The position numbers and the translations under genes are program-made. A stretch of 40,570 nucleotides of DNA, taken from sequence record SRR20825006_2358; one strand, given 5' to 3'. Below are positions 475-23,675 of this stretch, one piece after another; position 1 is the stretch's first letter, and every line of letters starts with the position of its first letter. Under the pieces are notes generated by a model. The model worked only from the letters and a program-made list of their open reading frames with translations, was not told the origin of the DNA and made no database searches.

Positions 475-1164
475 TTACAAGCTACAGCTCTTGCCGTCGC
501 GCATTGATTCACAAGTGCAGTCGTCAAATCTACCTTCGGAGCAATCGGTGCAGAACGCTGCTAGAGAAACACGCAGTGCTTGGCGCGCCCGATGCAGGCG
601 CACTCTCGCATTCGATGGTGTGATCCCAAGATCAGCTGCGGCTCGTTCACGCGGTTCATCCGACAGATCGATCCGTTCAAGAATCTCTGCATAGTCCGGG
701 CGCAACCCCGGCACAAGCTTTCGAAGACAGCTGCAAACGCCTTTCTCGTTCGCTAGATCTACCTGGCCGTCGGCCAATACCATCTGGTCTTGCATGTAGC
801 TGTCTTTTCGGCGCCGCCGTGCAGCCTCACTGCGGTAATGATCGGTCAGCACCGAGCGCAACACCGTATACAACCAGGCGACCACACTTTCGCTATTCCT
901 AAGTACTGTCCCGCTGTTGATGACTCGCACGCAGAAAGTTTGAAGCACATCCTCCGCAGTGACCGAATCGCCGACCCGGCGCACGAGATAGCGACGAAAT
1001 TCGTGATAATAGTCGGTGAGTGCCATTTCTATTTCCGGGGTCATCGGCCGTGACGTGTTGTCGAGCTCATCGGAAAGTGGGTCGGTTTTAATCGTCTTAT
1101 GTGTTGCTACAGTCATGCTCAAAACCTCGGCCCGAGTTGGCAAGATCGGGCGATCTGGAAACAT
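475..1164 (-). CDS. ECF sigma factor, CorE/SigZ-like (ECF44/ECF238) with CxC linker and Cys-rich C-terminus
   Basis: Sigma2 (AEDVLQ..., WLYTVLRSVLTDHYR), linker CSC, sigma4 (LGITPSNARVRLHRARQAL), tail CTDCSEGRFDDCTC. The start codon is uncertain and could be a downstream Met. Confidence 0.88.
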   Translation of the reverse strand: MFPDRPILPTRAEVLSMTVATHKTIKTDPLSDELDNTSRPMTPEIEMALTDYYHEFRRYLVRRVGDSVTAEDVLQTFCVRVINSGTVLRNSESVVAWLYTVLRSVLTDHYRSEAARRRRKDSYMQDQMVLADGQVDLANEKGVCSCLRKLVPGLRPDYAEILERIDLSDEPRERAAADLGITPSNARVRLHRARQALRVSLAAFCTDCSEGRFDDCTCESMRDGKSCSL

Positions 1165-1253
1165 CTTCGGGCTGAGCGCCTTAGGTCAACGCACAAAAAC
1201 ACCCCACGCTAGCCTTGCGCTAAAACCCACCATAGGGGTCGAGTTTCGGGTTC

Positions 1254-1294
1254 ATAATACGAGAATCGAGAGCAACGGCATTGATCTAAATCAA
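1254..1294 (-). promoter_or_regulatory. FNR/FixK box with class II promoter geometry upstream of the sigma gene
   Basis: Perfect TTGAT-CTAA-ATCAA at 1281-1294. Minus-strand -10-like TATTAT at 1259-1254. The box centre falls about 41 bp from the implied start site (~1246). Confidence 0.75.
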
Positions 1295-1424
1295 AGCCAT
1301 AAAGAGTAACGGTACAGTAGTTCAGTAAGGGCAACCGCCGTGGTCGAAGGTAAGTCGAGAGAAATCTGTGGTGGACGCCGGGCGCGAACCTAGGCCGGGC
1401 AGCAGCAAACCAACACGGTTGCCC

Positions 1425-2318
1425 TTATCCGGCCATTCTGGCCGGCTTAGTCCCTCTGCGCGTCACCAACACGACCCCAAGAATCGCAAGGACAATGCCG
1501 ACGATCTGCATCCAGCCAAGGGTCTCACCGTAAAACAAAGCGCCCATTGCAAGGCCGAAAATCGGGATCAGGAAGCTTAACGCGTTCGCGCGGTTGAGAG
1601 GCGCTTTCTCCAGCACGGAGAACCATAGCCAGTATACTAACGCCGACCCGAACAGACTGAGAACAAGGAGCGCGCCTACAAATGGCAACGACCATCGGAT
1701 CGTTGTTGGCTCCTCCGTGGCCCAGGCGACAATAGCGAGCGGAACACTGCCGATGAGCAACTGGAGGCCCATTGCCATAAGGGCGTCGACGTTTCCGGCA
1801 ATTCGTTTAATTACAACGTTGCTCACCGTGACGCCGAGTGCAGCCAGGACAATATAGGCTACTCCTAGAATGTAATTTTCTTGCCCGCCGGTGAGTATCT
1901 GGGGCGAAGTGATGACGAGTATCCCCATAAAGCCCAAGGCAAGGCCTGCTTTGCCCAGCGCGGTCAACTGTTCTTTGAGGATGATACCCGCCAGGCCCGC
2001 CGCCAACAGCGGTTGGGTGTTGGCGATTACAGTGGCGATGCCCGGGGAAACGAATTCCGCGGCATGGAACATCCCCAAGAAGCCCAGGCTGGTGGCACCT
2101 GCGCCAACGATGGCCAACATTGTCCAGATTCGACGACTTTTGGGCAGGGGCTGCCGCAATGCAAGCGCGACGATGATCAACGCTGCGCCTGCCAGGAACG
2201 CGCGCAGCGTGGCGAATGTCAGGTGAGGGGCAAATTCAATGCCGACGGTTATCAGCGGGAAGCAGGCAGCCCAAAGCAACATGACCAGAATGATTTGCGC
2301 GATGATTCCAACGGTCAC
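1425..2318 (-). CDS. DMT/EamA family transporter
   Basis: About 10 hydrophobic segments in two EamA-like halves (LLWAACF..., NTQPLLAA, LIPIFGL...GE); GTG start. Confidence 0.85.
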   Translation of the reverse strand: MTVGIIAQIILVMLLWAACFPLITVGIEFAPHLTFATLRAFLAGAALIIVALALRQPLPKSRRIWTMLAIVGAGATSLGFLGMFHAAEFVSPGIATVIANTQPLLAAGLAGIILKEQLTALGKAGLALGFMGILVITSPQILTGGQENYILGVAYIVLAALGVTVSNVVIKRIAGNVDALMAMGLQLLIGSVPLAIVAWATEEPTTIRWSLPFVGALLVLSLFGSALVYWLWFSVLEKAPLNRANALSFLIPIFGLAMGALFYGETLGWMQIVGIVLAILGVVLVTRRGTKPARMAG

Positions 2319-2435
2319 TCGACTTTCATCCCATCGTCTATCCGTCCCGCGACACCACCATCACGACCTACTGGCGTTTGTCTGCCAAGTCTCGTGTCGT
2401 TGCTGATTGGATTCACACGAGTTGATCCGTTCGGT

Positions 2436-3350
2436 TCACGCACACTGGCAGGGATGAACGGCCCGGTTTTCCGCGCCGCGCGACATCTCGCGGGTCAACC
2501 AGAAACCGGCCCCGAGCAGCAATGCGCCACCATAGATCATGCCCTGCGCCGGGGTTTCGGCGAAGATAAGGTAGCCCAGCGTTGACGCCACGACCGGCGA
2601 GACGATGATATCGACGAGCGCATAGACATTGGCGTTGAGGGTCTTGAGGACGATGGAGATGCCGAAATAGGCGAAGCCGGTCGAGACGATGCCCAGCCCC
2701 GCTGCCCAGAGCATCACCGGCAGGTCCATCCCGAGTGCGGCATAGGAGATGGTCGCGGCGGGCGTGCCGGGGCCGGCGAGGATGAGCGCTGGCGACAGGA
2801 TCAGCGCCCCCGCGAGCATCGACCAGGCGATGTCGTTGCCGGCCTCGGTCTTTCCTTCGTAGCGCATGTAGGTGACCATGGCGGCGTAGATCGCGCCGTC
2901 GCCGAGTGCGACGAGGTTGCCGATCATGTGGCCGCCCTCAAGCGGCTTGGCGAGGACGATACCGGTCAGCGCGACGGCGAAGATCAGGATGTAGCTCTTG
3001 CGTGCCTTTTCACCGAGAAACAGCGCCGAGAAGATGAACACGAAGAAGGGCGCGACGCTCCAGAAGATCACCGCATTGGCGATGGGCACCAGCGTCATGG
3101 CGTAGTTGAAAACGCTGATCTGCGTGGCGATCAGCACGCCGATGATCGCGGTGTCTTTCAGGTTGCCTTTCGGAAAGCGCAAGGGCCGGCCGGTCGCCAG
3201 CGGCATGACCGCCATCAGAAAGGCGGCCGCGAAGCTCAGAGCGTAGAAATTCAGCGTCTGGATCGGGATCAGTCCGTCGGTGAGCTTCACGAACACGCCG
3301 ATTGTGGCCTCCGACAGCGTGATCAGCAGGAGCAGGAGAACGATCTTCAT
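2436..3350 (-). CDS. DMT/EamA family transporter with C-terminal HPCQCA
   Basis: Two EamA-like halves (APFFVFIFSALFLGEK, SPVVASTLGYLIFAE). The start overlaps the CDF stop (ATGA). Confidence 0.85.
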   Translation of the reverse strand: MKIVLLLLLITLSEATIGVFVKLTDGLIPIQTLNFYALSFAAAFLMAVMPLATGRPLRFPKGNLKDTAIIGVLIATQISVFNYAMTLVPIANAVIFWSVAPFFVFIFSALFLGEKARKSYILIFAVALTGIVLAKPLEGGHMIGNLVALGDGAIYAAMVTYMRYEGKTEAGNDIAWSMLAGALILSPALILAGPGTPAATISYAALGMDLPVMLWAAGLGIVSTGFAYFGISIVLKTLNANVYALVDIIVSPVVASTLGYLIFAETPAQGMIYGGALLLGAGFWLTREMSRGAENRAVHPCQCA

Positions 3351-4282
3351 TTCCGGCTGCGGCCCCCTGCCGTGCGCGTCACGTCGATGGCTTCAGCCCC
3401 GGACTCATCAAGGCAGGTGTCCTCGACCTGCAAGGTGACGAAGAAGAATCCGAATTTTTCTTTGAGCATGGCGTGCGCTGCCGCCAGGACCGCTTGGGGA
3501 TCGGTCTCGTCGGCGACGCGCACATGACCGGAGAAGACGTAACGGCCGCTGGTCAGAGCCCAGGCATGAACGTGGTGGGCATTCGCAACGCCTTCGACCT
3601 GCTCCAGCGCGCCGGTGACATCGGACAGGCCGACGTCGGCCGGTGTGCCTTCCATCAATAGGTGAGCAGCGTCGCGCAGAATGCCCCAGCTGGCCCAGAG
3701 CAGCACGAAGCCGAAGCCCATACCAAGGATCGGATCGATCAGCAGGAACCCGGTGAATTGAATCACGAGTGCCGTCACGATAATGAGCAGGCTGCCGACG
3801 AAGGTTTGAATGATGTGCCAAAGTGCGCCTTTCACGTTCAGGTCGCTCTGGCTCTGCTTCCAGATCAAGCCGAGCGAAATAAACTCGGTGAAAAGCCCGC
3901 CCGCCGCGGCCCAAAGCATCGGCCCGGTAGGCAGCTCGATCGGGTCGGACAGCCGCATCGCACCCATTACGATCACGATGAGCGCCATGCCCAGAAGGAA
4001 GCCGCCATTGACGAGCGCTCCGATAATCTCGGCGCGGTACCAGCCGAAACTGCGATCCTCGTCGGCGGGGCGGCGGGCAAGCTTGGCGGCGACGATCGCG
4101 ACTAGTACGCCACCCACCGCCGAGAAGGTGTGGAAGGCGTCGGAAATCACCGCGATCGAGCCCGTCCAGAGGCCGATGCCCATCTCGATTACGAAATAGA
4201 TGCCGGTCAGCCAAGCCGAGATCACCATTCCCCGTCCGCTTGACGGCATGTGGCCGGCATGGCCGCTATGGGCTTGGCTCAT
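3347..4282 (-). CDS. Cation diffusion facilitator (CzcD/ZitB-like)
   Basis: SDAFH, FGWYRAEIIGALVNG, NVKGALWH, LMEGTP, HHVHAW; His-rich N-terminus. ATG at 4282 preceded by GAGAGGA. Confidence 0.9.
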   Translation of the reverse strand: MSQAHSGHAGHMPSSGRGMVISAWLTGIYFVIEMGIGLWTGSIAVISDAFHTFSAVGGVLVAIVAAKLARRPADEDRSFGWYRAEIIGALVNGGFLLGMALIVIVMGAMRLSDPIELPTGPMLWAAAGGLFTEFISLGLIWKQSQSDLNVKGALWHIIQTFVGSLLIIVTALVIQFTGFLLIDPILGMGFGFVLLWASWGILRDAAHLLMEGTPADVGLSDVTGALEQVEGVANAHHVHAWALTSGRYVFSGHVRVADETDPQAVLAAAHAMLKEKFGFFFVTLQVEDTCLDESGAEAIDVTRTAGGRSRK

Positions 4283-4596: not shown

Positions 4597-5058
4597 TCAA
4601 ACCTTAAGAGGGGGTTCCAGCGTCAACATGACGAGGTGTAGGAGGGTCCGGCGGCCTAGCTGAAGTCGTCTGATGACTATCTGTTCGCTGAGACCGAGAT
4701 CTGTGGCGATCCTGGTGGGCGGATGATTCAGAATTTCCGCGCGCCACACCACCTCGGCGTAGCGGGGTTCCAAGAGACGCATAAGCGTTTCGATAAACTC
4801 CTGCAGAATTGCCTCCATCTCGGTGTCGTCGGAGCCGTCCGAGTCCGGTGGACACCCAGAATCTCCCTCCCCGTCGCTATTTCCGTTCCGGCCTTTGTGT
4901 GCCGCCAAAACGCCACCATCAAGGCTGTCGCGCTGGCGTCGGCATGGCTGGCACCTTGGGGTTAAAAACCCTTCTGGATGAACGAGCTGTTCGTTATCTG
5001 GATCAATCAGGCCGGCTTTTGAAGCGGCGCGGTTTCCATCTTCCATCGTCTCGATCAC
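4597..5058 (-). CDS. Sigma region-4-only protein related to the local CorE-like sigmas
   Basis: C-terminus LEPRYAEVVWRAEILNHPPTRIATDLGLSEQIVIRRLQLGRRTL resembles sigma4 of both intact sigmas, with no sigma2. GTG start with GGAGGAG RBS. N-terminal half contains CQPC. Confidence 0.6.
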   Translation of the reverse strand: MIETMEDGNRAASKAGLIDPDNEQLVHPEGFLTPRCQPCRRQRDSLDGGVLAAHKGRNGNSDGEGDSGCPPDSDGSDDTEMEAILQEFIETLMRLLEPRYAEVVWRAEILNHPPTRIATDLGLSEQIVIRRLQLGRRTLLHLVMLTLEPPLKV

Positions 5059-5128: not shown

Positions 5129-5155
5129 GACGTGAATGGGTCGCCGAAAGTTACA
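5129..5155 (-). promoter_or_regulatory. Putative ECF promoter TGTAAC-N17-CGTC (toward sigma4-only gene, CDF, DMTs)
   Basis: GTTACA at 5150-5155 and GACG at 5129-5132 on the + strand; intergenic. Confidence 0.65.
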
Positions 5156-5229: not shown

Positions 5230-5255
5230 TGTAACGGAGCCAGCCGGGCATCGTC
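5230..5255 (+). promoter_or_regulatory. Putative ECF promoter TGTAAC-N16-CGTC (phaB-phaA)
   Basis: TGTAAC at 5230-5235 and CGTC at 5252-5255; intergenic and divergent from the previous site. Confidence 0.7.
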
Positions 5256-5411: not shown

Positions 5412-6134
5412 ATGGGACGAACGGCATTGGTGACCGGCGGCACGCGCGGAATCGGCTCCGCGATTGCCAGAACCCTGCGCGATGCGGGCTATACGGTCGC
5501 CGCTAGCTACCACGGCAACGATCTGGCGGCCGAAGACTTCAAGGCGGCAACGGGCATCCCTGTTTTCAAATGGGATGTGGCCGATGACGAGGCCTGCGCC
5601 GCCGCCGTCGCGAAAATCACCACCGCATATGGCCCGGTCGAGATTCTCGTGAACAATGCGGGGATCACCCGCGACGCTATGCTCCATAAATTAACGTCAG
5701 AGCACTGGCGCGCGGTAATCGATACCGATTTGACCGCTTGTTTCACTATGTGCCGCACCGTCATTTCCCCGATGCGGGAGCGCGGTTACGGCCGCATTAT
5801 CAACATCAGCTCGATTAATGGCCAGAAGGGCCAACTGGGCCAGACCAACTATGCGGCGGCGAAAGCCGGTCTTCTGGGATTCACCAAGGCGCTAGCGCTC
5901 GAGAGCGCCGCCAAAGGCGTCACCGTCAACGCCATTGCCCCGGGCTATATCGAGACCGACATGGTCGCCGACGTTCCCCCTAAGGTTCTCGATAGCATCG
6001 TCGCCCAGATCCCGGTCGGCCGCCTCGGCCAACCCGAGGAAATTGCCCGGGCCGTGGTGTTTCTGGCGAGCGACGACGCGGGTTTCATCACGGGTTCGAC
6101 ACTGACCGTCAATGGCGGCCAGTACCTGATCTGA
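5412..6134 (+). CDS. phaB: Acetoacetyl-CoA reductase
   Basis: ALVTGGTRGIG, NNAGITRD, SSINGQKGQLGQTNYAAAKAG, NGGQYL. ATG 5412 matches the usual family N-terminus. Confidence 0.92.
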   Translation: MGRTALVTGGTRGIGSAIARTLRDAGYTVAASYHGNDLAAEDFKAATGIPVFKWDVADDEACAAAVAKITTAYGPVEILVNNAGITRDAMLHKLTSEHWRAVIDTDLTACFTMCRTVISPMRERGYGRIINISSINGQKGQLGQTNYAAAKAGLLGFTKALALESAAKGVTVNAIAPGYIETDMVADVPPKVLDSIVAQIPVGRLGQPEEIARAVVFLASDDAGFITGSTLTVNGGQYLI

Positions 6135-6185: not shown

Positions 6186-7373
6186 ATGACTCACAAGCAG
6201 GTTATGCTTTGTACCCCCGTGCGCACCGCGATCGGCACCTATGGAGGATCCTTGAAAGATCTGCCGGCGACCGAGCTCGGCGCAACGGCGATCCGCGCGA
6301 CGATCGAGCGGTCGGGCGTCGATCCCTCGCTCGTTCAAACCGTGGTCATGGGACAGGTGATCCAGGCGGGCGCCAGAATGAACCCTTCACGCCAGGCGGC
6401 AATCGGTGCTGACATTCCGGTTGGCGTGCCAGCGATGACCGTCAATCGGGTGTGCGGCTCTGGGGCTCAGGCGATCGCCTCGGCGGCCCAGGAGATCATG
6501 CTCGGACATATCGACTGCGCGGTCGCCGGCGGCATGGAGAACATGGACCAGGCCCCCTACATCGTTCAAAACGGGCGCTGGGGTTATCGCATGGGTGATG
6601 CCCAGATGCACGACAGCATGCTCCGTGACGGCCTGAACGACGCCTTTTCCAGCGAGCACTCCGGCTGGCACACGGAAGACTTGGTGAAGAAGGCTCAGAT
6701 TACGCGCGAAGATCAGGATCGCTGGGCCGAACGCTCTCAGCGGCGCTTTTCCGAGGCGCAGGCTGCTGGCAATTTCAAGCAAGAGATCGCTCCGGTAGAA
6801 CTCAAGACTCGTAAGGAGACGACCACATTCGACGCCGATGAACACAACCGACCCGACACGACCCTCGACAGTCTGAGCAAGCTCAGGCCTGCCTTCCGCA
6901 AGGAGGGTACGATTACGGCTGGCAATGCGCCGGGACTCAACAGCGGCGCGGCGGCGATGATAATCGCCGAGGCGACTTGGGCGGAGAAGAACGGTCTTAA
7001 ACCCATGGCCAGGTTGGTTTCCTACGGTGTGGGCGCGGTCGATCCCGGCATGTTCGGCCTCGGACCGGTACCGGCCGTCTTTCAGGCTCTGGAGCGGGCG
7101 GGCTGGAGCGTTGGCGATCTCGACCGCGTCGAGATCAATGAGGCCTTTGCCGCCATTGCCGTTGCGCTCGCGCGTGAGATCGGAATCGAACAAGACATCG
7201 TCAACGTCGAAGGCGGCGCTATTGCCCACGGTCATCCGATCGGCGCAACGGGGGCCGTTTTGACGACGCGACTCCTGCATGCAATGGAGCGCAATGGGGT
7301 CAAGCGGGGCTTGGTGACGCTCTGCATCGGCGGCGGGCAGGGCATCGCACTCACCTTGGAGCGGACGTCCTGA
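6186..7373 (+). CDS. phaA: Acetyl-CoA C-acetyltransferase (beta-ketothiolase)
   Basis: NRVCGSG, NEAFA, GHPIGATG, LCIGGGQG thiolase motifs. Confidence 0.92.
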   Translation: MTHKQVMLCTPVRTAIGTYGGSLKDLPATELGATAIRATIERSGVDPSLVQTVVMGQVIQAGARMNPSRQAAIGADIPVGVPAMTVNRVCGSGAQAIASAAQEIMLGHIDCAVAGGMENMDQAPYIVQNGRWGYRMGDAQMHDSMLRDGLNDAFSSEHSGWHTEDLVKKAQITREDQDRWAERSQRRFSEAQAAGNFKQEIAPVELKTRKETTTFDADEHNRPDTTLDSLSKLRPAFRKEGTITAGNAPGLNSGAAAMIIAEATWAEKNGLKPMARLVSYGVGAVDPGMFGLGPVPAVFQALERAGWSVGDLDRVEINEAFAAIAVALAREIGIEQDIVNVEGGAIAHGHPIGATGAVLTTRLLHAMERNGVKRGLVTLCIGGGQGIALTLERTS

Positions 7374-7530: not shown

Positions 7531-8040
7531 ATGCTTGTCGCGACAATACTGGCGCTGTCACTCGCCATATTGACGTTCTTATTTCATTATGCGGTTCTGC
7601 GTTGGCTGTCCGGTGGCATGGCGCGCATCGCGATGACCGCTGGTGTGCGTATCCTGGTCATCGTTCTTATGGTGACCGCAGCGCATCTCATCGAGATTGG
7701 GATTTATGCGGTCGCCTATGCGCTTGGTGATGGCGTCCTCGCCCTCGGCGGTTTCGGCGGCCTGGCCGTCGCCGAGCCGCTCGACTACCTCTATTTTTCG
7801 ATCGTGAGCTACACCTCGCTCGGGCTCGGCGATGTGTTTCCTTCTGATCACCTCCGCTTCATCACCGGCGTTGAGGCCTTGAACGGCCTGTTGCTGATCG
7901 CTTGGTCGGGATCCTTCATATATATCGCGATGGCACGTCTTTGGCCGTGGCGATCCTGCACCGAGCCGACTCGCGGCAACGCGGACAAGAGGTTCAAGTC
8001 GGCCCCGATGCCACCTCAAAATACGGACAGTATGAATTAG
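7531..8040 (+). CDS. Small potassium-channel-like (Ion_trans_2) membrane protein
   Basis: YLYFSIVSYTSLGLGDVFP pore helix and filter flanked by TM helices. Confidence 0.8.
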   Translation: MLVATILALSLAILTFLFHYAVLRWLSGGMARIAMTAGVRILVIVLMVTAAHLIEIGIYAVAYALGDGVLALGGFGGLAVAEPLDYLYFSIVSYTSLGLGDVFPSDHLRFITGVEALNGLLLIAWSGSFIYIAMARLWPWRSCTEPTRGNADKRFKSAPMPPQNTDSMN

Positions 8041-8141: not shown

Positions 8142-9455
8142 ATGAAATCTGATTACCAGGCGAACAGCATCACTCTGACCGGCGGTGTCTCGATGGGCAC
8201 CGGCGTCATGATCGGAGCGGGAATCTTCGCGCTTACCGGTCAGATTGCAGAACTTGCGGGCCCGTGGTTTCCGCTTTCCTTCATCGCCGGCGGGATCGTT
8301 ACCGGATTCAGCGCCTATACCTATGTGAAGATGTCGAATGCTTTCCCGTCCGCTGGCGGAATCGCAATGATCTTGCAGAAGGCCTATGGGCCGGGGGCAA
8401 TTGCGGCCGCCGCCGCTTTGCTGATGGCGCTCTCCATGGTGATCAACGAGAGTCTCGTCGCGCGGACTTTCGGCGCCTACGTTCTCAGGCCATTCGAATT
8501 AGAGGCAGGCAGCATTCTCGTGCCCGCGCTTGGCGTCGGGCTGATCGTCTTCGCCTATCTTGTTAACATATCGGGCAATCGCTCCGTTGGCCTGTTCTCA
8601 GTCGTCATGGCATTCCTGAAAATCGGTGGCATCGCCGCCTTCGGCATTGCCGCGCTGGTGGCCGGCGGCTTCACCTTCGAGCCGGCGTCAGGGTCGTCGC
8701 AATCCATCCCGATCGCCGGCTTCACGGCGTCGATCGCGTTTTCGATCCTCGCATTCAAGGGCTTCACGACGATCACCAACAGTGGCGCCGAGATCGTCGA
8801 TCCGCATCGCAATGTCGGCCGCACGATCATCATTTCAATCGCGATTTGCGTGGTGGTCTATCTGCTGGTCGCGTTCGCGGTCGGTTCCAGTCTCTCGCTC
8901 GACGAGATCGTCGCCGCGAAAGACTATTCGCTCGCGGAGGCAGCCGAACCGGCCCTCGGTCCTTACGGTTTCTATTTCACCATCGCGCTTGCTGTTGTCG
9001 CGACCGCCTCGGGGCTGCTCGCCAGTGTCTTTGCCGTCTCGCGCATGCTGGCGATGCTGACCGACATGAAGATGATCCCCCACAGTCATTTCGGCATGTC
9101 CGGTCCGATCCGCGAGCACACGTTGGTTTACACCGTGGTGATTGCGGGAGTCCTGACGGTGCTTTTTGATCTCAGCCGCATCGCATCGCTCGGCGCCTTC
9201 TTCTACCTGGTGATGGATATCCTGATCCATTGGGGCGTGTTCCGCCGCCTGCGCCACGAGATCGACGCGAGCGGCTGGGTACTGATTATGGCTATCGCGC
9301 TCGACGCGCTCGTGCTCGGCGTCTTTGGCGCCATAAAGCTGCAATCAGATCCGCTTATCGTGGTCATCGCGGTCGCCGCCATCGCCGCAGTGTTCGCCTA
9401 TGAGCGCGTCTTTCTGTCGCGCTGGACCGCGGAGGAAAAACATGGCGGTCACTGA
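8142..9455 (+). CDS. APC family amino acid permease
   Basis: GVMIGAGIF, PSAGG, AFKGFTTITNSGAEI; about 12 TM segments. Confidence 0.88.
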   Translation: MKSDYQANSITLTGGVSMGTGVMIGAGIFALTGQIAELAGPWFPLSFIAGGIVTGFSAYTYVKMSNAFPSAGGIAMILQKAYGPGAIAAAAALLMALSMVINESLVARTFGAYVLRPFELEAGSILVPALGVGLIVFAYLVNISGNRSVGLFSVVMAFLKIGGIAAFGIAALVAGGFTFEPASGSSQSIPIAGFTASIAFSILAFKGFTTITNSGAEIVDPHRNVGRTIIISIAICVVVYLLVAFAVGSSLSLDEIVAAKDYSLAEAAEPALGPYGFYFTIALAVVATASGLLASVFAVSRMLAMLTDMKMIPHSHFGMSGPIREHTLVYTVVIAGVLTVLFDLSRIASLGAFFYLVMDILIHWGVFRRLRHEIDASGWVLIMAIALDALVLGVFGAIKLQSDPLIVVIAVAAIAAVFAYERVFLSRWTAEEKHGGH

Positions 9456-9562
9456 GCAGTTGCCAAGCCCCGCTCATCATCCGGCGATCACGCTATTTTC
9501 GAGATTTATATCGCAACAGGTGAAAATGATCTCTCGCCATATCTACGAGGCCGGGAGAGAAC

Positions 9563-10177
9563 ATGACTGACGATCAAGACAGTGATTCACCACGAGACGC
9601 TGTCCATGCAGTCATGGTGGAAATTCAGCAGGACTTCTTTCGCTTTCTCGCGCGGCGGCTCGGCAATGAAGAGGAGGCCGCCGACGTTCTGCACGATTTC
9701 TACGTCAAGGTGCTTGCCCGGGTTGGCGATGTTCGCGACACGGAAAAGCTGCGCGCCTGGATGCGCCGGGTGTTGGAGACGACGTTAGTCGACTATTACC
9801 GCGCCCAAGGCAAGAAGCGTCAAAGGGACGCGGAATACCACTATCTGGAGTCAGTGCTCTTGACCGGCGAAGCCAAGAGCGATCTCGATCTCTTTGTCTG
9901 TGTGTGCCTTTACAAACTTCTTCCGACCCTAAAGTCGGAGTATGCGGAAATCTTGTGGCGCGCCGACTTGATCGGCGAGTCCCGCCAAAGTATCGCTGGC
10001 ACGCTCGGCATCACGGAGAGCAATTTTCGCGTGCGTCTGCACCGGGCCCGCCAGGCCTTGCGGCAGCAGCTGGAAGAGACCTGTCGGACCTGCCCAATTC
10101 ATGGCTATCTCGATTGCGAGTGCGACTACGCCGGCCATGTTCGTGCGGAGATCGGGGAAGGACCCTCCGAACTGTAA
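9563..10177 (+). CDS. ECF sigma factor, CorE-like with CxC linker and Cys-rich domain
   Basis: Sigma2 (AADVLHDFY, WMRRVLETTLVDYYR), linker CVC, sigma4, tail CRTCPIHGYLDCEC. Confidence 0.9.
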   Translation: MTDDQDSDSPRDAVHAVMVEIQQDFFRFLARRLGNEEEAADVLHDFYVKVLARVGDVRDTEKLRAWMRRVLETTLVDYYRAQGKKRQRDAEYHYLESVLLTGEAKSDLDLFVCVCLYKLLPTLKSEYAEILWRADLIGESRQSIAGTLGITESNFRVRLHRARQALRQQLEETCRTCPIHGYLDCECDYAGHVRAEIGEGPSEL

Positions 10178-10198
10178 CGAATTGCTCCCCGGACCGTC
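10173..10198 (+). promoter_or_regulatory. Putative ECF promoter TGTAAC-N16-CGTC overlapping the sigma stop codon (phasin to phaC operon)
   Basis: TGTAAC at 10173-10178 and CGTC at 10195-10198. Confidence 0.7.
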
Positions 10199-15479: not shown

Positions 15480-17264
15480 ATGGGGCACCATCCAACGAAA
15501 ATACGAACGGAGCAAACCGCGCTGGCAACGCCTCGCAACGAACCGATGGGAAGGGGTTTATCCCTGGATCAACCTCTCCACGCGACACTCGGGCAGATCA
15601 CCGCCGGTGTGTCGCCCGTGGCGCTTGCTCAAGCGTATACGGACTGGGCGCAGCATCTCGTCATGTCGCCCGACAAGCAAATAGAACTAGTTCGGAAGGC
15701 CGCCCGCAAATGGGCGCGCTATCTGGAATACTGTTCACGGGCTTGCTCGGATCCTCATTGCGAGGCCTGCATCGAGCCCCTGCCGCAGGACAAACGCTTT
15801 GCCGGTGATCCGTGGCAGGCATGGCCATATAACGCGATCTATCAGGGTTTTCTCCTGACCCAGCAATGGTGGCACAACGCCACAACCGGCATCTCCGGCG
15901 TCTCCAGGCACCATGAAGAGGTCGTTTCCTTCGTTGCCCGGCAGTTGCTCGATATGATGTCGCCTGCGAATTTTCCGTCGAGCAACCCCGAGGTCCTGAA
16001 GGAGACCCTCGATACCGGGGGCCAAAATCTGGTACGCGGCGCGGTGAACTTCTTCGAGGACTGGCAACGCGCGGTCCGTGGGGGGCCACCTGCCGGCACG
16101 GAACGGTTTGCGGTCGGCGACAACCTGGCGGTTACACCGGGCCAAGTGATTTTCCGTAACGAATTGATCGAACTGATCCAATACATGCCGGCGACGGATA
16201 AGGTTCATCCCGAGCCTATCCTGATCGTGCCTGCCTGGATCATGAAATACTATATCCTCGACCTTAGCCCCGAGAACTCGCTGGTGAAATACTTGGTCGA
16301 GAAGGGTCACACGGTCTTCATGATCTCCTGGAAAAATCCGACGGTCGAAGATCGCGACCTTGGTATGGAGGACTATCGCCGGCTGGGCGTCATGGCCGCG
16401 CTCGACGCGGTGTCAGCTATCGCGCCGGAAAGCCGCGTCCACGGCGTCGGCTACTGCCTCGGTGGAACGCTCTTATCGATTGCTGCGGCGGCCATGGTCC
16501 GCGATGGCGACGACCGGCTGGCAACCATGACCCTCTTCGCCGCGCAGACGGACTTCACGGAAGCCGGCGAATTGATGCTGTTCATTGACGCGGCCCAGGT
16601 CAGCTTTCTTGAGGACATCATGGCCGAGCAGGGCTGTCTCGATACCAAGCAGATGGCCGGCACGTTCCAGCTGCTTCGCTCCAACGACCTCATCTGGTCG
16701 GCCATGGTTCAGAATTATCTCATGGGACAGCGCCGACCGATGTTCGACCTGATGGCGTGGAATGCTGACGCCACGCGCATGCCTGCCAGGATGCACTCCG
16801 AATATCTCCGGCAGCTGTTCCTCGATAATGATCTGGCGGACGAACGCTATTGCGTCGACGGTCGCCCGGTGTCGTTGCATGACATCCGCATTCCGATTTT
16901 TGCGGTCAGCACGCTCTCGGACCATGTCGCGCCGTGGCGGTCGGTTTACAAGATCCACAGCCAAACCAATGCTGATGTTACCTTCGTACTATCCAATGGC
17001 GGCCACAATGCCGGCATTGTGAGCCCACCTGGCAACACCCGGCGTCGTCACCAGATCGCCACCCACGATGATCTCGCGGCCTACCTGGACCCTGACACCT
17101 GGCAGGCGCGGGCCACCCACCATGAGGGTTCATGGTGGCCCTGTTGGCTAGGGTGGCTTAGCAACCATTCGGGTGAACCCGTTAAGCCCCCTGGCCTGGG
17201 GGCGGCGCGCAAGGGCTATCGGCGGCTGGGCGAAGCGCCCGGCACCTATGTGCTGATGCCCTGA
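15480..17264 (+). CDS. phaC: Class I PHA synthase
   Basis: TPGQVIFRNELIELIQY, PAWIMKYYILDLSPENS, lipase box GYCLGG, DHVAPW, GHNAGIV, SWWP. Confidence 0.92.
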   Translation: MGHHPTKIRTEQTALATPRNEPMGRGLSLDQPLHATLGQITAGVSPVALAQAYTDWAQHLVMSPDKQIELVRKAARKWARYLEYCSRACSDPHCEACIEPLPQDKRFAGDPWQAWPYNAIYQGFLLTQQWWHNATTGISGVSRHHEEVVSFVARQLLDMMSPANFPSSNPEVLKETLDTGGQNLVRGAVNFFEDWQRAVRGGPPAGTERFAVGDNLAVTPGQVIFRNELIELIQYMPATDKVHPEPILIVPAWIMKYYILDLSPENSLVKYLVEKGHTVFMISWKNPTVEDRDLGMEDYRRLGVMAALDAVSAIAPESRVHGVGYCLGGTLLSIAAAAMVRDGDDRLATMTLFAAQTDFTEAGELMLFIDAAQVSFLEDIMAEQGCLDTKQMAGTFQLLRSNDLIWSAMVQNYLMGQRRPMFDLMAWNADATRMPARMHSEYLRQLFLDNDLADERYCVDGRPVSLHDIRIPIFAVSTLSDHVAPWRSVYKIHSQTNADVTFVLSNGGHNAGIVSPPGNTRRRHQIATHDDLAAYLDPDTWQARATHHEGSWWPCWLGWLSNHSGEPVKPPGLGAARKGYRRLGEAPGTYVLMP

Positions 17265-17376: not shown

Positions 17377-18159
17377 ATGGAACTCATCGATATGAAAGGC
17401 CGGAAGGGGTTGGTGGTGGGAATTGCCAACGAACACAGTTTGGCCTGGTCGGCGGCCCAGCATTTTCGGAACGCCGGCGCCGATCTTGCCATCACCTATC
17501 TGAACGACAAGGCCAAGCCCTTTGTTGAGCCGCTTTCGCAACAGGTGGACGCGCAACTTTTCCTGCCCTGCAATGTCGCCGAGCCGGGACAATTGGAGGC
17601 CGTCTTCGGGGAGATCGAGCAGAAATGGGGCCGATTGGATTTTCTGTTTCATGCGATCGGGTGGGCCCGTAAGGAAGATCTCCATGGCCGGTTGACCGAT
17701 TGTTCGGGAGAAGGCTTCGCTGAATCGATGCTTATCTCGTGCCACTCCTTCATCCGTATGGCGAAGCTCGCCGAGCCGCTCATGGACAAAGGTGGCAGCT
17801 TGACGACGCTCAGCTACTACGGCGCAGAAAAAGTGGTCGATCATTACAATGTCATGGGGCCAGTCAAAGCCGCCCTTGAAGCGTCTGTACGCTACCTGGC
17901 CCATGAACACGGTGGCAAGGCGATCCGGGTGAACGCGATTTCGGCCGGGGCGGTCGCGACACGCGCCGCCTCGGGCATCGAGCATTTCGACGAACTATTG
18001 AATGAGACCGTCCGCAAGGCACCGCTGCGGCGCACGGTGGACGCCTGCGAGGTGGGACGTACGGCGCTTATGCTGGCGAGCGATTATACGAGCGCCATCA
18101 CCGGGGAAACGCTCTACGTCGACGCGGGCTTTCACATCGAAGGGATGGTGTTTCACTGA
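17377..18159 (+). CDS. fabI: Enoyl-ACP reductase
   Basis: GIANEHSLAW, YYGAEKVVDHYNVMGPVKAALE, NAISAG, TRAASGI. Confidence 0.9.
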   Translation: MELIDMKGRKGLVVGIANEHSLAWSAAQHFRNAGADLAITYLNDKAKPFVEPLSQQVDAQLFLPCNVAEPGQLEAVFGEIEQKWGRLDFLFHAIGWARKEDLHGRLTDCSGEGFAESMLISCHSFIRMAKLAEPLMDKGGSLTTLSYYGAEKVVDHYNVMGPVKAALEASVRYLAHEHGGKAIRVNAISAGAVATRAASGIEHFDELLNETVRKAPLRRTVDACEVGRTALMLASDYTSAITGETLYVDAGFHIEGMVFH

Positions 18160-18374
18160 TGGCCGGCTTCGAACCCGAAAAAGACGTAGTGGTCACCGAC
18201 CCGGTATGCGGCATGCGCCTGACGCCCGAAAAGGCCGTCGCTCACGAGGAGCGTGAGGGCTGGGCGTATTTTTTCTGCTCGGAGGGCTGTCACAAGCTCT
18301 TTCTTACAGCGCCGGAACGATACTCCTCCTCACTGGCCTATTTCTCGCAGCCATCGGCCGGTAAGGATACGTAG
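18159..18374 (+). CDS. Stand-alone YHS domain protein
   Basis: DPVCGMRL...YFFCSEGCHKLF...PERY; coupled to the fabI stop. Confidence 0.85.
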   Translation: MAGFEPEKDVVVTDPVCGMRLTPEKAVAHEEREGWAYFFCSEGCHKLFLTAPERYSSSLAYFSQPSAGKDT

Positions 18375-18653
18375 CCGCAGACCTGTGACGTCAGACGAAG
18401 AACGGATCGTCGTAAAAGCGTGAGCGATGCGTCCCTTGCAGAGGACCTTTACGAGTATCCGGGACGCAATTTTGTAGGGTTTCGAACGACCGATCTATGG
18501 AAGATCGGCAGCCGATTTCGGGCCGAGTGCCGCTGTTCCGCCTTCGCTCTACGCCTGTTCAGGCACGGCAGGCGAGGCTCCCAAAGGGCTTCAGACGATC
18601 TCTGCCGCCTCAGTCCGCCCGCCCGGCGGCCACTGCCTGTGAATCCCCGTCAC

Positions 18654-18679
18654 TGTAACGCTGAGCGTCTCTCGTCGTC
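18654..18679 (+). promoter_or_regulatory. Putative ECF promoter TGTAAC-N16-CGTC (SHOCT-copA operon)
   Basis: TGTAAC at 18654-18659 and CGTC at 18676-18679; intergenic. Confidence 0.7.
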
Positions 18680-18812: not shown

Positions 18813-19148
18813 ATGAGAAGACGATTGACGAATTTGGCCCTGGCGCTGCCCACCGCGGTGGTCTCGATGCCGGCACTTGCGCAAACCTCGGCCGATCGAT
18901 CCGACTATTGGCACTATGGCTGGGGCTGGGGACACATGATTTTTGGCTCCGTCATGATGATTGTCTTCTGGGGCGGGATCATCCTCGCGATCGTGCTCGC
19001 GGTCCGCTGGCTGGGTGGCGATTCAGGACGGGTAACCCGATCGCAATCACGAACGAACGGGCCCCTCGACATCCTTCACGAACGCTTTGCCCGCGGCGAG
19101 ATCGACAAGGAAGAGTTCGAAGAACGAAAGCGTCTGCTCTCCGACTGA
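18813..19148 (+). CDS. SHOCT domain membrane protein
   Basis: Signal peptide, [45 protein letters not shown]. Confidence 0.85.
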
Positions 19149-19227: not shown

Positions 19228-21588
19228 ATGAATAAGCACGATGATCACGATCACAGCCATCGCTCTGACGGTACAACAGGTTCCGTCAAGGCTATGACGG
19301 CCAGAGATCCGGTTTGCGGAATGACGGTGCAGTTGGATCAGGACAAGCCGAGCCAAGAGTACGAGGGTGAGACCTATCACTTTTGTTCTCAAAAGTGCCA
19401 CGACAAGTTCGCGGCCGACCCGGAGCATTATCTCGCCGGCGAGCACAAGGCCGAAACAGCGCCTAAGGGCACGAAATATACCTGCCCGATGCATCCCGAG
19501 ATCGTGCGGGACGAACCGGGAGAATGTCCGATCTGCGGCATGGCGCTGGAGCCTATGGGGGTTCCAGCCCCCGATGACGGACCGAATCCCGAGCTTGTTG
19601 ATTTCAAGCGCCGGTTTTGGATCGGCGCCGTGCTGACGGTTCCGCTTCTTGTGCTGACGATGGGCCCCTTTGTTGGGCTCGGTTTCGTCCGCGACATCTT
19701 CGGCGAGCGTGCGACGCTGTGGATCGAACTCGCTTTGGGGACACCGGTCATTCTCTGGGCCGGTTGGCCATTCTTCGTGCGTGGCGTCAAGTCGGTGATC
19801 AACCGCAGTCTCAACATGTTCACGCTCATCGGGATGGGCGTCGGCGCGGCCTATCTCTTCAGTGTCGTCGCCGTGCTCGTGCCGGAGATTTTCCCGGACG
19901 GATTTCGCGATGCGGAGGGCCATGTCGGGGTTTATTTCGAAGCCGGCGCCGTGATCGTCGTGCTGGTGCTGCTCGGCCAGGTGATGGAGCTTGGCGCGCG
20001 CGAGCGAACGGGCTCGGCGATTCGCGCCCTTTTGGATATGGCCGCCAAGACCGCCCGGGTGATCCGCAAGGACGGGAGCGAGGAAGAAATCCCGCTCGAG
20101 GACGTCAAGGTCGGCGATCGGCTGCGCGTCCGCCCGGGCGATAAGGTCCCCGTCGACGGCGTGGTGGTCGAGGGACGTTCGTCGATCGATGAATCGATGA
20201 TCTCTGGCGAACCGGTTCCGGTCGAGAAAGTCGAGGGCGACAAGGTCACCGGCGCCACAATCAACGGCACGGGCAGTCTCGTGATCGAAGCCGAACGCGT
20301 CGGCTCCGACACCATGCTGAGCCAGATCGTCGAGATGGTCGCGAACGCGCAGCGCAGCCGTGCCCCGATCCAGAAACTTGCCGACTCTGTGGCGGGCAAG
20401 TTCGTACCGGCCGTGATCGTCATTGCAATTCTCTCGTTCATCGCATGGTCTCTTTGGGGGCCTGCCCCGGCCCTCTCATACGGACTGGTCTCGGCAGTCG
20501 CCGTTTTGATCATCGCCTGTCCGTGCGCGCTGGGCCTGGCAACGCCGATGTCGATCATGACGGCGACGGGCCGAGGCGCGCAAGCCGGCGTGCTCATCAA
20601 GAACGCCGAGGCGCTGGAACGCTTCGCCAAGGTCGACACGCTGATCGTCGACAAGACGGGGACGCTGACCGTCGGCAAGCCGAAGCTCGTCGCGGTCTTG
20701 CCGCAACCCGGGCATGAGGAGGACGAGGTGCTGCGCTTGGCCGCAAGCCTGGAGCGGGGCTCGGAGCACCCACTCGCCGAAGCCATCGTCACCGGGGCCG
20801 AAGAACGCGATGTTGCGCTGGCTAACGCGGATGAATTCGAAGCCGTCACCGGCAAAGGGGTAAAAGGCGTCGTCGACGGCAAATCAGTGGCGCTCGGCAA
20901 CGCAAAGCTGCTCGCCGATCTGGGGCTCGACGGCGGCAAGCTCTCCGAGACCGCCAATGCTCGACGTGACGAAGGCGAAACGGTGATGTTCGTCATCGTC
21001 GGGTCCGAAATCGCCGGTCTCGTGTCGGTTGCCGATCCGGTCAAGGAGACGACGCCGGACGCGCTGAAGGCGCTGCACGAACAAGGCTTCCGCATCGTCA
21101 TGGCGACTGGCGACAACGAGCGTACCGCGAAGGCGGTGGCTGGAAAACTCGGGATCGACGAGATCCGTGCCGACGTGTTGCCCGAAGACAAGGCGCGCAT
21201 CATCAAGGATCTGCAAGACGAAGGCCGAAAGGTCGTGATGGCAGGCGATGGCGTCAACGACGCGCCTGCACTGGCCCAGGCCGATGTCGGCATCGCCATG
21301 GGCACCGGCGCCGACGTGGCGATCGAGAGCGCGGGTTTCACCTTGGTCAAGGGTGATCTCAACGGCATCGTCCGGGCCAGGAAGCTCTCGCGCGCGACGA
21401 TGCGCAACATCAAGCAGAACCTGTTCTTCGCCCTGTTCTACAACGCCGCAGGCGTGCCGGTGGCGGCAGGGGTTCTGTTCCCGTTCTTCGGGATTTTGAT
21501 CTCGCCGATATTCGCAGCCGCGGCGATGAGCCTGTCGTCCGTATCGGTAGTCGGCAACGCTCTCCGGCTGCGCTCGGTGAAGATCTAG
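19228..21588 (+). CDS. copA: Cu(I)/Ag(I)-translocating P1B-type ATPase with YHS and CPMHP domains
   Basis: [57 protein letters not shown]. Confidence 0.93.
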
Positions 21589-21639
21589 AAGGGCTCATCC
21601 CGGCGCGGCAATGCGCTTTACGGAAAGGAACCACAAGCT

Positions 21640-22716
21640 ATGAACGTCATATCGTTTTCCCGGGCCGCCGCCTGGACAGGACTGATGGCCTTGGCGTTGG
21701 GAGCGCAGACGGCTCTTGCTGAACCGCTCGTGTATGTGCCTCTCGGCGGGGAGAACAAGATCGTCGCTGTCGATGCCGCGACGGACGAAATCGTCGATAC
21801 GTTGACTGGTCCGGCGGCGGTTCATGGGCTCGCCGGAACGCCCGACGGACAGTTCTTGATTGCCGGAAGCTTCGAGACGCGCGCATCAGACGGCGAAGCT
21901 GTCGCGAAGCCGGCGGGCGTTTCCGAAGACGAGCATGCCGCGCACCATGGTGCCGCCTCCCCCGATGCCAGGAACGCCGTCGCGGAAGTCAGCACGGTCT
22001 CGGTTGTTCGAACGGTCGACGGGTCCGTGGTCCGGCGCATCGACGTACCCGGCGCCGTCCATCACGTCGCGGTCAGTGACGATGGCCGGTTCGCCGTCGT
22101 CACCCATCCCAACGCCGGATCAATCAGTGCCATCGACCTCGGCTCCTATGAGGTGGTCGCGACGGTCGCCACCGGGCCCCTGCCCAATTACGCGGCCTTC
22201 GCTCCTGGCGGTGACCGTCTTTACGTCAGCAACGCCGGCAACGACACGGTCAGCGAGATCGACACGGCACGGTGGATCGTCCGGTCGAATACCGTTGTCG
22301 GCGGCAGCCCCGAACACATCGTTCTGTCCAGAGATGGCGTCACTCTCTACGTCAACAACGTCGACGACGGCACGGTCTCCGTCGTTGAGGTCGGCGACCA
22401 GACGGTTGTGAAGACGATTCGCCTCGAAACGGCCCTCCACGGGATCGACCTGTCCGATGACGGCGGCGCGCTCTTCATCGCGGTCCTTGGTGGCGACAAG
22501 GTGGTTGCCATCGATCTCGCTACCGGCGCCCAGCGCAGTGTTTCCTCGGCTCCCGCCCCGTACCACCTCGCCGTCATTCGCGGGACGGGCAAGCTCTACG
22601 TCTCCAGCGCCGACGAGCCGAAAATTTGGGTGATCGATCAGCGGGATCTCAGGATTCGCGGAGAGATCCAGATCGGCGGCAAAGGCCATCAGATGGTTCA
22701 GGGCGCGGGCGGATGA
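21640..22716 (+). CDS. Exported YncE/YVTN beta-propeller protein with His cluster
   Basis: Signal peptide, repeated propeller units (LYVSNAGNDTVSEID), EDEHAAHH. Confidence 0.82.
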   Translation: MNVISFSRAAAWTGLMALALGAQTALAEPLVYVPLGGENKIVAVDAATDEIVDTLTGPAAVHGLAGTPDGQFLIAGSFETRASDGEAVAKPAGVSEDEHAAHHGAASPDARNAVAEVSTVSVVRTVDGSVVRRIDVPGAVHHVAVSDDGRFAVVTHPNAGSISAIDLGSYEVVATVATGPLPNYAAFAPGGDRLYVSNAGNDTVSEIDTARWIVRSNTVVGGSPEHIVLSRDGVTLYVNNVDDGTVSVVEVGDQTVVKTIRLETALHGIDLSDDGGALFIAVLGGDKVVAIDLATGAQRSVSSAPAPYHLAVIRGTGKLYVSSADEPKIWVIDQRDLRIRGEIQIGGKGHQMVQGAGG

Positions 22717-22764
22717 CCTCGACCGTATTTCGGAAACGACGAGGGTCGGAAGAGGGGACGCGAC

Positions 22765-23007
22765 ATGGCGCAGCATGAAACCAGCGGCTTTCGGAGCTTC
22801 ATTTTCTCCCGTTCGGGCATGGTGTTGCTCGGATTCCTGGCAGTGGCGGGTTACTTCCTGTGGGAAGAGCATGCCGCGCATATTCTGGGCTATCTGCCGC
22901 TCCTCCTCATTCTCGGACTCTGCGTGGGCATGCATTTCTTCATGCATGGCAGCCACGGGGGCGATCACGGATCGCACCGCGACGAACCGCGGGAGGACGA
23001 CAGATGA
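22765..23007 (+). CDS. DUF2933 membrane protein
   Basis: YFLWEEHAAH...LCVGMHFFMHGSHGG. Confidence 0.8.
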   Translation: MAQHETSGFRSFIFSRSGMVLLGFLAVAGYFLWEEHAAHILGYLPLLLILGLCVGMHFFMHGSHGGDHGSHRDEPREDDR

Positions 23008-23675
23008 GCAACGAAGTTCCAGCCTACGGCCTCTGGTTCTTGGTGGTGGTCAACTCGGCGATCTTCATCCTGTTCGCCTTTAGCTTCTTTAAGCCGAAGA
23101 CTGGCCGGGACTGGCGCTCATTCGGTGCTTTCAGCGCCTTTCTGGTCGCGCTTTTCACTGAGATGTACGGCTTCCCGCTCACCATATATTTCCTATCGGG
23201 CTGGTTGCAGACCAACTACCCAAGCGTCGACTGGCTTGCCCATGATTCCGGCCATCTCCTGGAAATGCTGTTTGGCTGGAAGGCAAACCCGCACCTCGGG
23301 CCCTTCCACATTCTGAGTTTCGGCTTTATCGGCGGCGGGTTCATCCTGCTCTCCGCCGCTTGGCGCGTCCTTTACCAAGCACAACGGACGGGAACGCTCG
23401 CGACCACGGGGCCTTACGCCCGCATTCGCCATCCTCAATATGTCGGCTTCGTCCTGATTCTGGTTGGGTTCCTGTTCCAGTGGCCGACCATTCTCACACT
23501 GGCGATGTTTCCCGTTCTGCTTGTCATGTACTGGCGTCTTTCCCTGCGCGAAGAGCGGGAAGTCGAAGCCGAATTGGGTGACGTGTACCGACGCTACGCC
23601 GAGAGAGTGCCCCGGTTCATGCCCCGCCTCAAAGACATTTTCACCAGCCCGGCCGTTGAGGGGGACCGACAATGA
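23004..23675 (+). CDS. Isoprenylcysteine carboxylmethyltransferase-family membrane protein
   Basis: ALFTEMYGFPLTIY, TGPYARIRHPQY, EE...YRRY..RVPRF; typical partner of DUF2933 in copper clusters. Confidence 0.85.
   Translation: MSNEVPAYGLWFLVVVNSAIFILFAFSFFKPKTGRDWRSFGAFSAFLVALFTEMYGFPLTIYFLSGWLQTNYPSVDWLAHDSGHLLEMLFGWKANPHLGPFHILSFGFIGGGFILLSAAWRVLYQAQRTGTLATTGPYARIRHPQYVGFVLILVGFLFQWPTILTLAMFPVLLVMYWRLSLREEREVEAELGDVYRRYAERVPRFMPRLKDIFTSPAVEGDRQ

Follow-up and report, generated by a model that had tools for sequence, protein, structure and literature searches.

Only two CorE-like sigmas are characterised, CorE and CorE2 of Myxococcus xanthus, both of them myxobacterial and both activated by metals (PMC3107203, PMC4937300; statements on published work here and below refer to the accessible parts of each paper). 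They belong to extracytoplasmic function (ECF) group ECF44, now placed in or beside ECF238, consist of sigma regions 2 and 4 only, have no neighbouring anti-sigma gene and count a P1B ATPase among their targets. Both carry a CxC pair and a cysteine-rich domain (CRD) with cysteines spaced by two, seven and one residues. The four CRD cysteines are invariant among CorE-like proteins, and Cys189 of CorE is needed for its activation by copper (PMC3107203); the alphaproteobacterial members are without the cysteine essential in CorE and CorE2 (PMC4937300). Direct metal switching has been demonstrated for CorE and CorE2 only, and the group has been described without a conserved promoter or autoregulation (PMC7826278). 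Here we examine two further CorE-like sigma factors, sigma1 (475-1164, - strand) and sigma2 (9563-10177, + strand), and the promoter that accompanies them, in SRR20825006_2358, a stretch of 40,570 nt (hereafter the window) in which the region studied, 475-23675, also encodes polyhydroxyalkanoate (PHA) synthesis, acetate metabolism and copper export.

Two low-oxygen systems provide further points of comparison. In Bradyrhizobium diazoefficiens the FixK2 regulon places phaC2, xfp-ackA, a thyP...MBL run, ppsA, USP, CBS, HlyD-ABC and DUF2933-ICMT genes under a FixK2 box in microoxia (PMC9104804), and the last of these pairs forms the tail of the copA operon in the window; unlike the island described here, that regulon is chromosomal and depends on a Crp/Fnr activator and the housekeeping sigma factor rather than on an ECF sigma factor. 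In Burkholderia cenocepacia the low-oxygen-induced lxa locus clusters phaB, phaC, ackA, pta, FtsH, a kinase and a cation ATPase, with PHA proposed as an electron sink (PMC3721108); it differs in having phaB, phaC, ackA and pta under an FNR/Anr-like motif, the accessible text reports no CorE-like sigma factor, and the main text does not mention copper. Closest in gene order is Thalassospira profundimaris WP0211 (TH2_19844/TH2_19889; PMC4937300 Table S4, rows 62-63), where a sigma gene is followed by two EamA genes, cation efflux, an ECF fragment, SDR, thiolase, ion channel, permease, a second sigma gene, phasin, DUF3141 and acetate kinase. This locus is given as a list of neighbours; the accessible discussion of that paper tallies only metal genes, without mention of a promoter or of a link to PHA or FNR.

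A sequence-only reading of the window had proposed that metal-sensing CorE-like sigma factors co-control PHA synthesis and copper efflux through promoters of the form TGTAAC-N16/17-CGTC, a coupling it took to be undescribed. The sigma family and the neighbourhood are already known, since relatives and gene order appear in PMC4937300, and to that extent the claim of novelty falls: the gene linkage is in print in two table rows. In a literature search in which subscription journals were little covered, we found no report of this promoter consensus, of the regulon, or of an FNR or PHA link for CorE-like sigma factors.

A promoter shared by the proteobacterial CorE-like branch

All four copies of TGTAAC-N16/17-CGTC named by the sequence-only reading are present on the strands it gave, at 5129-5155 (-), 5230-5255 (+), 10173-10198 (+) and 18654-18679 (+), and each is co-oriented with the gene cluster that it precedes, 96-311 bp ahead of the likely start. 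The spacer is 16 nt in the three + strand copies, which precede phaB-phaA, the phasin operon and SHOCT-copA respectively, and 17 nt in the copy at 5129-5155. Four copies compare with a chance mean of 0.03, and none of 100 shuffles reached four. As the pattern used in this test was fitted to the four window sites, the independent check lies in the loci of relatives, with the window and near-identical loci excluded.

Family breadth was drawn from 401 genomes of the class (10 of them matching), 30 plasmids and the best 80 of 159 confirmed genome stretches. This gave 99 loci around sigma homologues (6 plasmid regions, 80 genome loci and 13 further genome stretches), from which 29 were removed for overlap with the window or with each other; the 70 dereplicated loci that remain are related by kinship and are not independent. 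In an unbiased count of all words made up of a 5-mer, a gap and a 4-mer in upstream regions, TGTAA-N17-CGTC ranked first, with 111 copies in 56 of the 70 loci against 1.1 expected. Over whole loci, TGTAAn-N16-CGTC occurs at 162 sites in 62 of the 70 loci, and 157 of these sites lie outside called genes; control words with spacers off by one to three bases gave 2-10 sites, and the reversed word gave 9. Conservation of the motif in related islands, a check that the sequence-only reading had proposed, is thus found.

As family consensus the sites give (c)TGTAA[C/T/G]G-N15-CGTC(T); purines stand 35-37 nt from its start, at the expected transcription start. Within the sigma2 clade (21 loci) the sixth base is C at 53 of 54 sites, vs 17 of 108 sites elsewhere, by a hand count over kin that are not independent and with a quick version of the sigma tree; sigma genes were counted from hidden Markov model hits, since the gene caller missed the sigma gene in some loci. 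Because this base tracks the sigma tree, sigma2 is most likely the reader of the TGTAAC sites of the window; loci holding only the other sigma type also carry sites. Its rank as the top de novo word, its non-genic position and the clade-specific sixth base all uphold the earlier assignment of the motif as an ECF promoter, and we are highly confident that the proteobacterial CorE-like (ECF44) branch uses TGTAAn-N16-CGTC(T) as its -35/-10 promoter. The AAC...G geometry is compatible with the text description of the CorE promoter, AAC at -35 with a G 16-18 nt further on.

The stop codon of sigma2 lies inside the -35 element of the copy at 10173, an arrangement shared by 17 of 83 sigma genes in the family. 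Sixteen of the 83 carry a site upstream of themselves, which contrasts with the description of ECF238 as lacking autoregulation. The copy at 18654 has the same layout in two related loci (L029 and L108), and the copy ending at 5155, whose 17-nt spacer is off-consensus, is yet retained with that spacing in three diverged loci (L025, L028 and L029), the spacer sequence itself having diverged. That copy lies ahead of a sigma4-only protein (4597-4818, -, in a frame open to 5058), which is akin to region 4 of CorE-like sigma factors, without CxC and CRD, and is conserved only over its last ~72 residues, with 55-58% identity in Aurantimonas loci; it could act as a feedback competitor of the full-length sigma factors. 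Chromosomal targets outside the island were considered; over whole genomes the motif is no more frequent than the reversed control, and it clusters solely at sigma loci.

In the nearest genome a fifth copy (G001:C15:17235-17260, minus) lies ~40-65 bp beyond the window's left edge, ahead of genes for a Met/Gln-rich protein and a VTT protein. The Met/Gln-rich protein (L014:16588-17223, -) looks secreted and has no Pfam match; relatives of it, with a VTT gene, stand behind the same site in L103, L105 and L107, and it is possibly a copper or silver sponge. An 18-bp unit is repeated three times in tandem directly upstream of the -35 element of this promoter, spanning the left edge of the window (window 1-29, L014:17277-17329).

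RNA-library contigs were available from four studies, for which the oxygen and metal status of the runs is not recorded; two runs (X2 and X4) looked flat and could contain DNA. In two studies contigs start at 5272 and 5279; another contig starts at 10221 and yet another stops at 1236, both of these with adapter attached. These ends sit 5-14 nt inside the predicted transcription starts and are a weak hint in their favour, as contigs cannot prove starts. At the 18654 promoter the contigs run on into other sequence, hence no start can be read, and the sigma4-only region is barely covered in two of the four runs, which proves nothing.

Sigma factors and their cysteines

Both full-length sigma factors contain Pfam domains for sigma regions 2 and 4 only, with a CxC pair between them that is invariant in the family alignment (C-S-C in sigma1; C113 and C115 in sigma2). 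Their tails carry the pattern C-x2-C-x7-C-x-C, which corresponds to the four invariant CRD cysteines of CorE (181, 184, 192 and 194); in sigma2 these are C174, C177, C185 and C187, accompanied by His180. A possible start of sigma1 is 1116. A Pfam scan limited to the proteins of the window, not genome-wide, found no anti-sigma domain. The assignment to the CorE-like family made by the sequence-only reading holds on these motifs and on the presence of relatives found here (WP_008282895/897, Sphingobium DS20 and C100, Marinobacter MnI7-9) in the published list of 67 members. SigZ (TIGR02959, the original ECF24) is the best NCBIfam model for both sigma factors, but with scores of 88 and 91 bits they fall below its cut-off of 168.65; SigZ-type members, in the descriptions accessible, are also generally without the linker CxC, unlike both sigma factors of the window.

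The family departs from CorE and CorE2 in having no equivalent of Cys189/Cys178. An equivalent of CorE Cys189 occurs in none of 77 CRDs, and the window sigma factors have Tyr and Phe there. At the position equivalent to Cys174 of the CorE2 (Cd/Zn) type sigma2 has Pro and sigma1 has Ser; a cysteine is present in 11 of 77 relatives, and a CRD His in 63 of 77. The predicted structure is a normal ECF fold in which CRD residues 178-204 have pLDDT <50, and sequence and fold searches of the PDB returned ordinary ECF sigma factors only and no solved relative with a CRD.

Genes behind the promoter

Across the family, 133 of the 162 sites have a co-oriented gene within 400 bp. The commonest first genes are cfa (24), a sigma gene (17), a P1B ATPase (13) and a Crp/Fnr gene (13). 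A multicopper oxidase is the first target at 3 sites and stands behind a site in 3 of the 17 loci that have one; further targets include xfp, arc, ppk2/pit, glgA, trehalose genes, USP, CBS, thyP-prs-MBL and ppsA. ECF-driven units hold low-oxygen or energy-stress genes in 50 of the 63 loci having such genes. Metal genes occur in 62 of the 70 loci and lie in ECF-driven units in 25 of those 62, and PHA or acetyl-CoA genes do so in 11 of 25 loci (a conservative rule; not all members of the SDR class are phaB). Targets are mostly energy, storage and membrane genes, unlike those of CorE and CorE2.

The PHA synthase gene itself is found in 4 of the 70 loci (flanks were 10-20 kb, and 10-kb flanks undercount). 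An automatic operon rule with gaps of up to 200 bp had scored phaC behind a site in none of the four; reading of the maps places all four behind a site, in runs of matching orientation that are interrupted by a larger gap or a miscalled antisense open reading frame (ORF). The claim that PHA synthesis and copper efflux share one promoter therefore survives in part: PHA or acetate genes and a Cu(I)-type ATPase are under the same promoter in the window and in some relatives, and the combination recurs, but as part of a larger set in which PHA synthase is a minor member. A coupling of metal to PHA as such is too narrow a description of so much broader a regulon.

Two of the targets are of separate interest. 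In Croceicoccus (L021:72-6880) a second F-type ATP synthase operon stands behind a site of the sigma family, in a region that holds nine sites. The Crp/Fnr gene that is frequently a direct target (L018:22630-23448 and 12 other loci) encodes a GLTFVHVNR helix; a positive loop from sigma factor to FixK and back to sigma factor was considered and dropped on account of this VHVNR helix.

FNR boxes and the exchange of promoters

A perfect FNR/FixK box (TTGAY-N4-RTCAA type), on which the sequence-only reading had not remarked, lies at 1281-1294 ahead of sigma1, 21 nt from a -10-like TATTAT (1259-1254), with transcription predicted to start near 1247. This is the distance of a class II promoter (1254-1294, -), and it is conserved: in the sigma1 clade a perfect box is found in three of three cases (the window, L029/L028 and L045) at the same 21-nt distance from a -10-like hexamer, at protein identities of at most ~53%. 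In the nearest genome there is a gene for an FNR-type protein that has the Cys motif and an ETVSR helix. No FNR box was found at the four target operons of the window.

Family-wide, perfect boxes precede 4 of 83 sigma genes and boxes with at most one mismatch precede 19 of 83; for the 1256 other genes of these loci the counts are 29 and 151. The loci as a whole are rich in such boxes, with 42 perfect boxes in 33 of the 70 loci (30 per Mb) vs 99 in the 21.6 Mb of five genomes, a density about six times higher. In two Marinobacter loci (L039 and L043) there are two near-identical sigma copies, one of which has an FNR box upstream and lacks an intact CRD pattern.

The comparison of operons with and without a linked sigma gene was made for DUF3141, using 1 kb at operon leaders chosen by hand. 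The sigma-less set (n = 28) comprises 8 plasmid regions, one of them from a plasmid with a sigma gene 75 kb away, and 20 of 23 matches in genomes without a sigma match; distant paralogues, 42-50% identical, make up 17 of the set. The ECF site is absent from all 28; a perfect FNR box is present in 10, and one with at most one mismatch in 18; among random 1-kb windows the corresponding figures for FNR boxes are 30 of 1506 (2%) and 168 of 1506 (11%). Among the 13 DUF3141 loci with a sigma gene, 10 have an ECF site (one of which serves a neighbouring gene) and all 13 have either an ECF site or an FNR box. SHOCT-copA shows the same exchange, with an ECF site in the window vs an FNR box in two Halomonas loci. 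The in silico comparison thus shows that the ECF site is often swapped for an FNR box at the same operon leaders.

Low oxygen, metals and alternative signals

On balance, we somewhat favour reading the island as an FNR-fed low-oxygen persistence regulon that includes export of Cu(I) and may be gated by metal or redox state, in which the sigma factors would be low-oxygen relays rather than simple alarms for copper. Judging from the conserved geometry, the host FNR protein would switch on sigma1 through the box at 1281-1294, and by this box the island would plug into the oxygen sensing of its host. Sigma2, together with sigma1, would then transcribe phaB-phaA, the phasin-to-fabI operon, SHOCT-copA and the gene for the Met-rich protein left of the window. 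The regulon would be a mobile low-oxygen persistence module akin to the FixK2 and lxa regulons, with PHA as an electron sink, acetate kinase/phosphotransacetylase, phosphoketolase and arginine deiminase providing ATP, cfa and cls acting on membranes, and ppk2 and a Cu(I) exporter within the same module. Cu(I) builds up in the absence of oxygen, and an exporter of it would for that reason be useful there. By analogy with CorE, sigma activity is probably subject to a second check, by metal or redox state, through the Cys motifs. If this reading is right, as we think slightly more probable than the reverse, PHA and copper genes share their regulation because both belong to a single low-oxygen programme, and not through detoxification of copper by PHA. 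Nothing that we examined supports the granule-based sequestration of metal suggested earlier.

Several observations pull the other way. The FNR box of the window is not significant by itself, as 46 of 100 shuffles match at one mismatch; enrichment of boxes ahead of sigma genes is modest, at ~2x background, and is concentrated in two clades; and sigma2, the likely reader of the sites, has no FNR box in the window. Even with one mismatch allowed, 10 of the 28 DUF3141 loci in the sigma-less set show no FNR box. The VHVNR recognition helix of the Crp/Fnr target, where ETVSR would be expected, leaves its likeness to FixK unestablished, and cfa, the top first target, was not found among the FixK2 and lxa entries examined. 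The choice of operon leaders and the sorting of genes into functional categories were done by hand. The island is also a metal-resistance island with invariant Cys motifs, adjoining mer, cueR-like and heavy-metal ATPase genes, and in Acidovorax T1 a DUF2933-ICMT-ATPase-DUF3141 run has no FNR box and is divergent from a heavy-metal two-component system.

These last points belong to the explanation closest to the sequence-only reading, in which the sigma factors sense metals directly, like those of Myxococcus, and Cu, Zn or Cd induces copper efflux and the PHA pathway, with oxygen playing no main part. Retention of the CxC and the four CRD cysteines, the metal activation of CorE and CorE2 (PMC3107203, PMC4937300), a P1B ATPase or multicopper oxidase as first target at 13 and 3 sites, and the metal genes in 62 of the 70 loci, 25 of them with such genes in ECF-driven units, are all as this explanation would have it. 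However, the Cys189 equivalent is missing from all 77 CRDs and the Cd/Zn-type position is Pro and Ser in the window; by our categories ECF-driven units take in low-oxygen or energy genes in far more of the loci that have them than they do metal genes, multicopper oxidases are rarely behind a site, and the mer and cue genes have their own MerR-family regulators. The exchange with FNR boxes and the FNR promoter of sigma1 likewise speak against it. Metal stress as the inducing signal is thus unsupported in the form proposed, and we consider direct metal sensing unlikely, while still giving it appreciable weight.

An FNR-like sigma factor, sensing oxygen or redox state directly through an iron-sulfur cluster labile to oxygen, or through a thiol redox switch, on its CRD or CxC, would account for a regulon that is interchangeable with FNR control, and the absence of an FNR box at sigma2 means that a protein-level signal is needed if sigma2 answers to oxygen. 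The CRD spacing C-x2-C-x7-C is the Cys spacing of the host FNR-type protein, and most CRDs hold a His. It is, however, a match in spacing only; CorE, with the same spacing, answers to Cu(II) and not to the oxidants tested, the CRD is of low confidence in the fold model, and no solved relative has one. We regard direct sensing of this kind as improbable. A broader form, in which proteobacterial CorE-like sigma factors are oxygen-responsive, transcribed by FNR in some lineages and switched through iron-sulfur or metal-thiol chemistry on CxC/CRD, with a portable hypoxia-persistence regulon of PHA, fermentative ATP supply, membrane remodelling and Cu(I) export replacing FNR control at the same operons, seems to us little better than improbable. 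A system of the mobile element for general stress or stationary phase, responding to acid or starvation and without special ties to oxygen or metal, with FNR boxes and metal genes reflecting no more than shared islands, fits cfa as top target, the common trehalose, glycogen, cls and pit/ppk2 genes and the restriction of FNR boxes to part of the family; set against the gene-for-gene overlap with FixK2 and the position-specific swap of ECF site and FNR box at the same leaders, it appears very improbable.

The sharp consensus and its clade-specific base make the regulon of the largest branch of the group predictable from sequence and directly testable. If the low-oxygen reading is true, sigma factors catalogued as metal sensors are partly mobile relays of the FNR response. 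The joint carriage of PHA, acetate, cfa and copper-export genes by plasmids and integrative elements in marine and wastewater bacteria would then have an explanation. Should metal activation be true instead, the sigma factors would place an entire persistence programme under the control of a metal. In both cases the outcome would be an inducible, anti-sigma-free promoter system ahead of a PHA pathway.

Gene content and setting of the island

Gene names given by the sequence-only reading for PHA, acetate, YHS, CDF, DMT, SHOCT, P1B ATPase and sigma genes agree with Pfam and NCBIfam matches, on which the following assignments rest unless stated otherwise. On the - strand, in order of coordinates, sigma1 is followed by two DMT/EamA transporters (1425-2318 and 2436-3350), a CDF cation efflux protein (3347-4228, in a frame open to 4402) and the sigma4-only protein. 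The remaining genes are on the + strand. Behind the promoter at 5230 lie phaB, an acetoacetyl-CoA reductase (5412-6134; TIGR01829 above cut-off), a phaA/bktB-like thiolase (6186-7373), an ion channel domain protein (7531-8040), an APC family permease (8142-9455) and sigma2. The phasin operon comprises phasin (10294-10740), a membrane-anchored YHS protein (10756-11115), a DUF5676 membrane protein (11108-11446), a DUF3141 protein with a PhaC-like hydrolase fold and a G-x-C motif (11443-13266), the acetate kinase gene ackA (13235-14473), a phosphate acetyl/butyryl transferase (pta/ptb; 14454-15476), a class I-like PHA synthase (phaC; 15480-17264) with an intact GYCLGG lipase box, and the enoyl-ACP reductase gene fabI (17377-18159; NCBIfam); a small YHS protein (18159-18374) comes next. 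Behind the promoter at 18654 are a SHOCT membrane protein (18813-19148), a P1B ATPase with YHS and HMBD domains (19228-21588; TIGR01511 above cut-off), a YncE-like beta-propeller (21640-22716), DUF2933 (22765-23007) and an ICMT-family methyltransferase (23004-23675). From its CPC, YN and MxxSS membrane motifs we take the ATPase to be of the P1B-1 Cu(I)/Ag(I) type.

Relatives carry a ~7.6-kb block between the permease and sigma2 (cfa, CHAD, pit, DUF47 and ppk2, with two ECF sites) that is absent from the window; it is kept in L107, L025 and L026, and its deletion is common to the window, L023 and L024. The join lies at 9534-9551, ~12-30 bp ahead of the sigma2 start, so that sigma2 is now directly behind the permease and without its usual upstream region. 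Transcription of sigma2 may be read-through from the phaB promoter, which would make a possible positive loop.

Positions 1-24000 form a lower-GC cargo block (GC 0.55-0.65) beside a stretch of GC 0.67-0.71 that encodes LuxR/LuxI, ArdC, ParB and a relaxase, and the block is for these reasons placed on a mobile element. In the nearest genome the fifth promoter and its genes are accompanied leftwards by mer genes, MerR-family regulators and a further heavy-metal ATPase; names of the genes there were read from translations, except for VTT, which was identified separately. Proteins identical to sigma2 are present in one Tepidicaulis and one Rhodobiaceae record. A repeat search of 1-24500 gave nothing meaningful, an Rfam search gave no match, and consensus scans for sigma70 promoters and terminators gave nothing informative above chance.

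The right edge of the cargo lies at 23751-24337, where GC climbs from ~0.59 to 0.68 and a truncated-looking ORF stands ahead of an AbiEii-domain ORF. Adjoining the latter, in the backbone of the mobile element, is a TraR/TraI-like LuxR/LuxI pair (25141-26817). At the far end (37019-40570) a VirD2-like relaxase (DUF3363) is followed by a low-GC ABC transporter ATPase, marking a second cargo or the host boundary. In one RNA run (X1), a related strain has an insertion of other sequence at 18474-18477, just upstream of the SHOCT-copA promoter, and L023 is duplicated in the same area.

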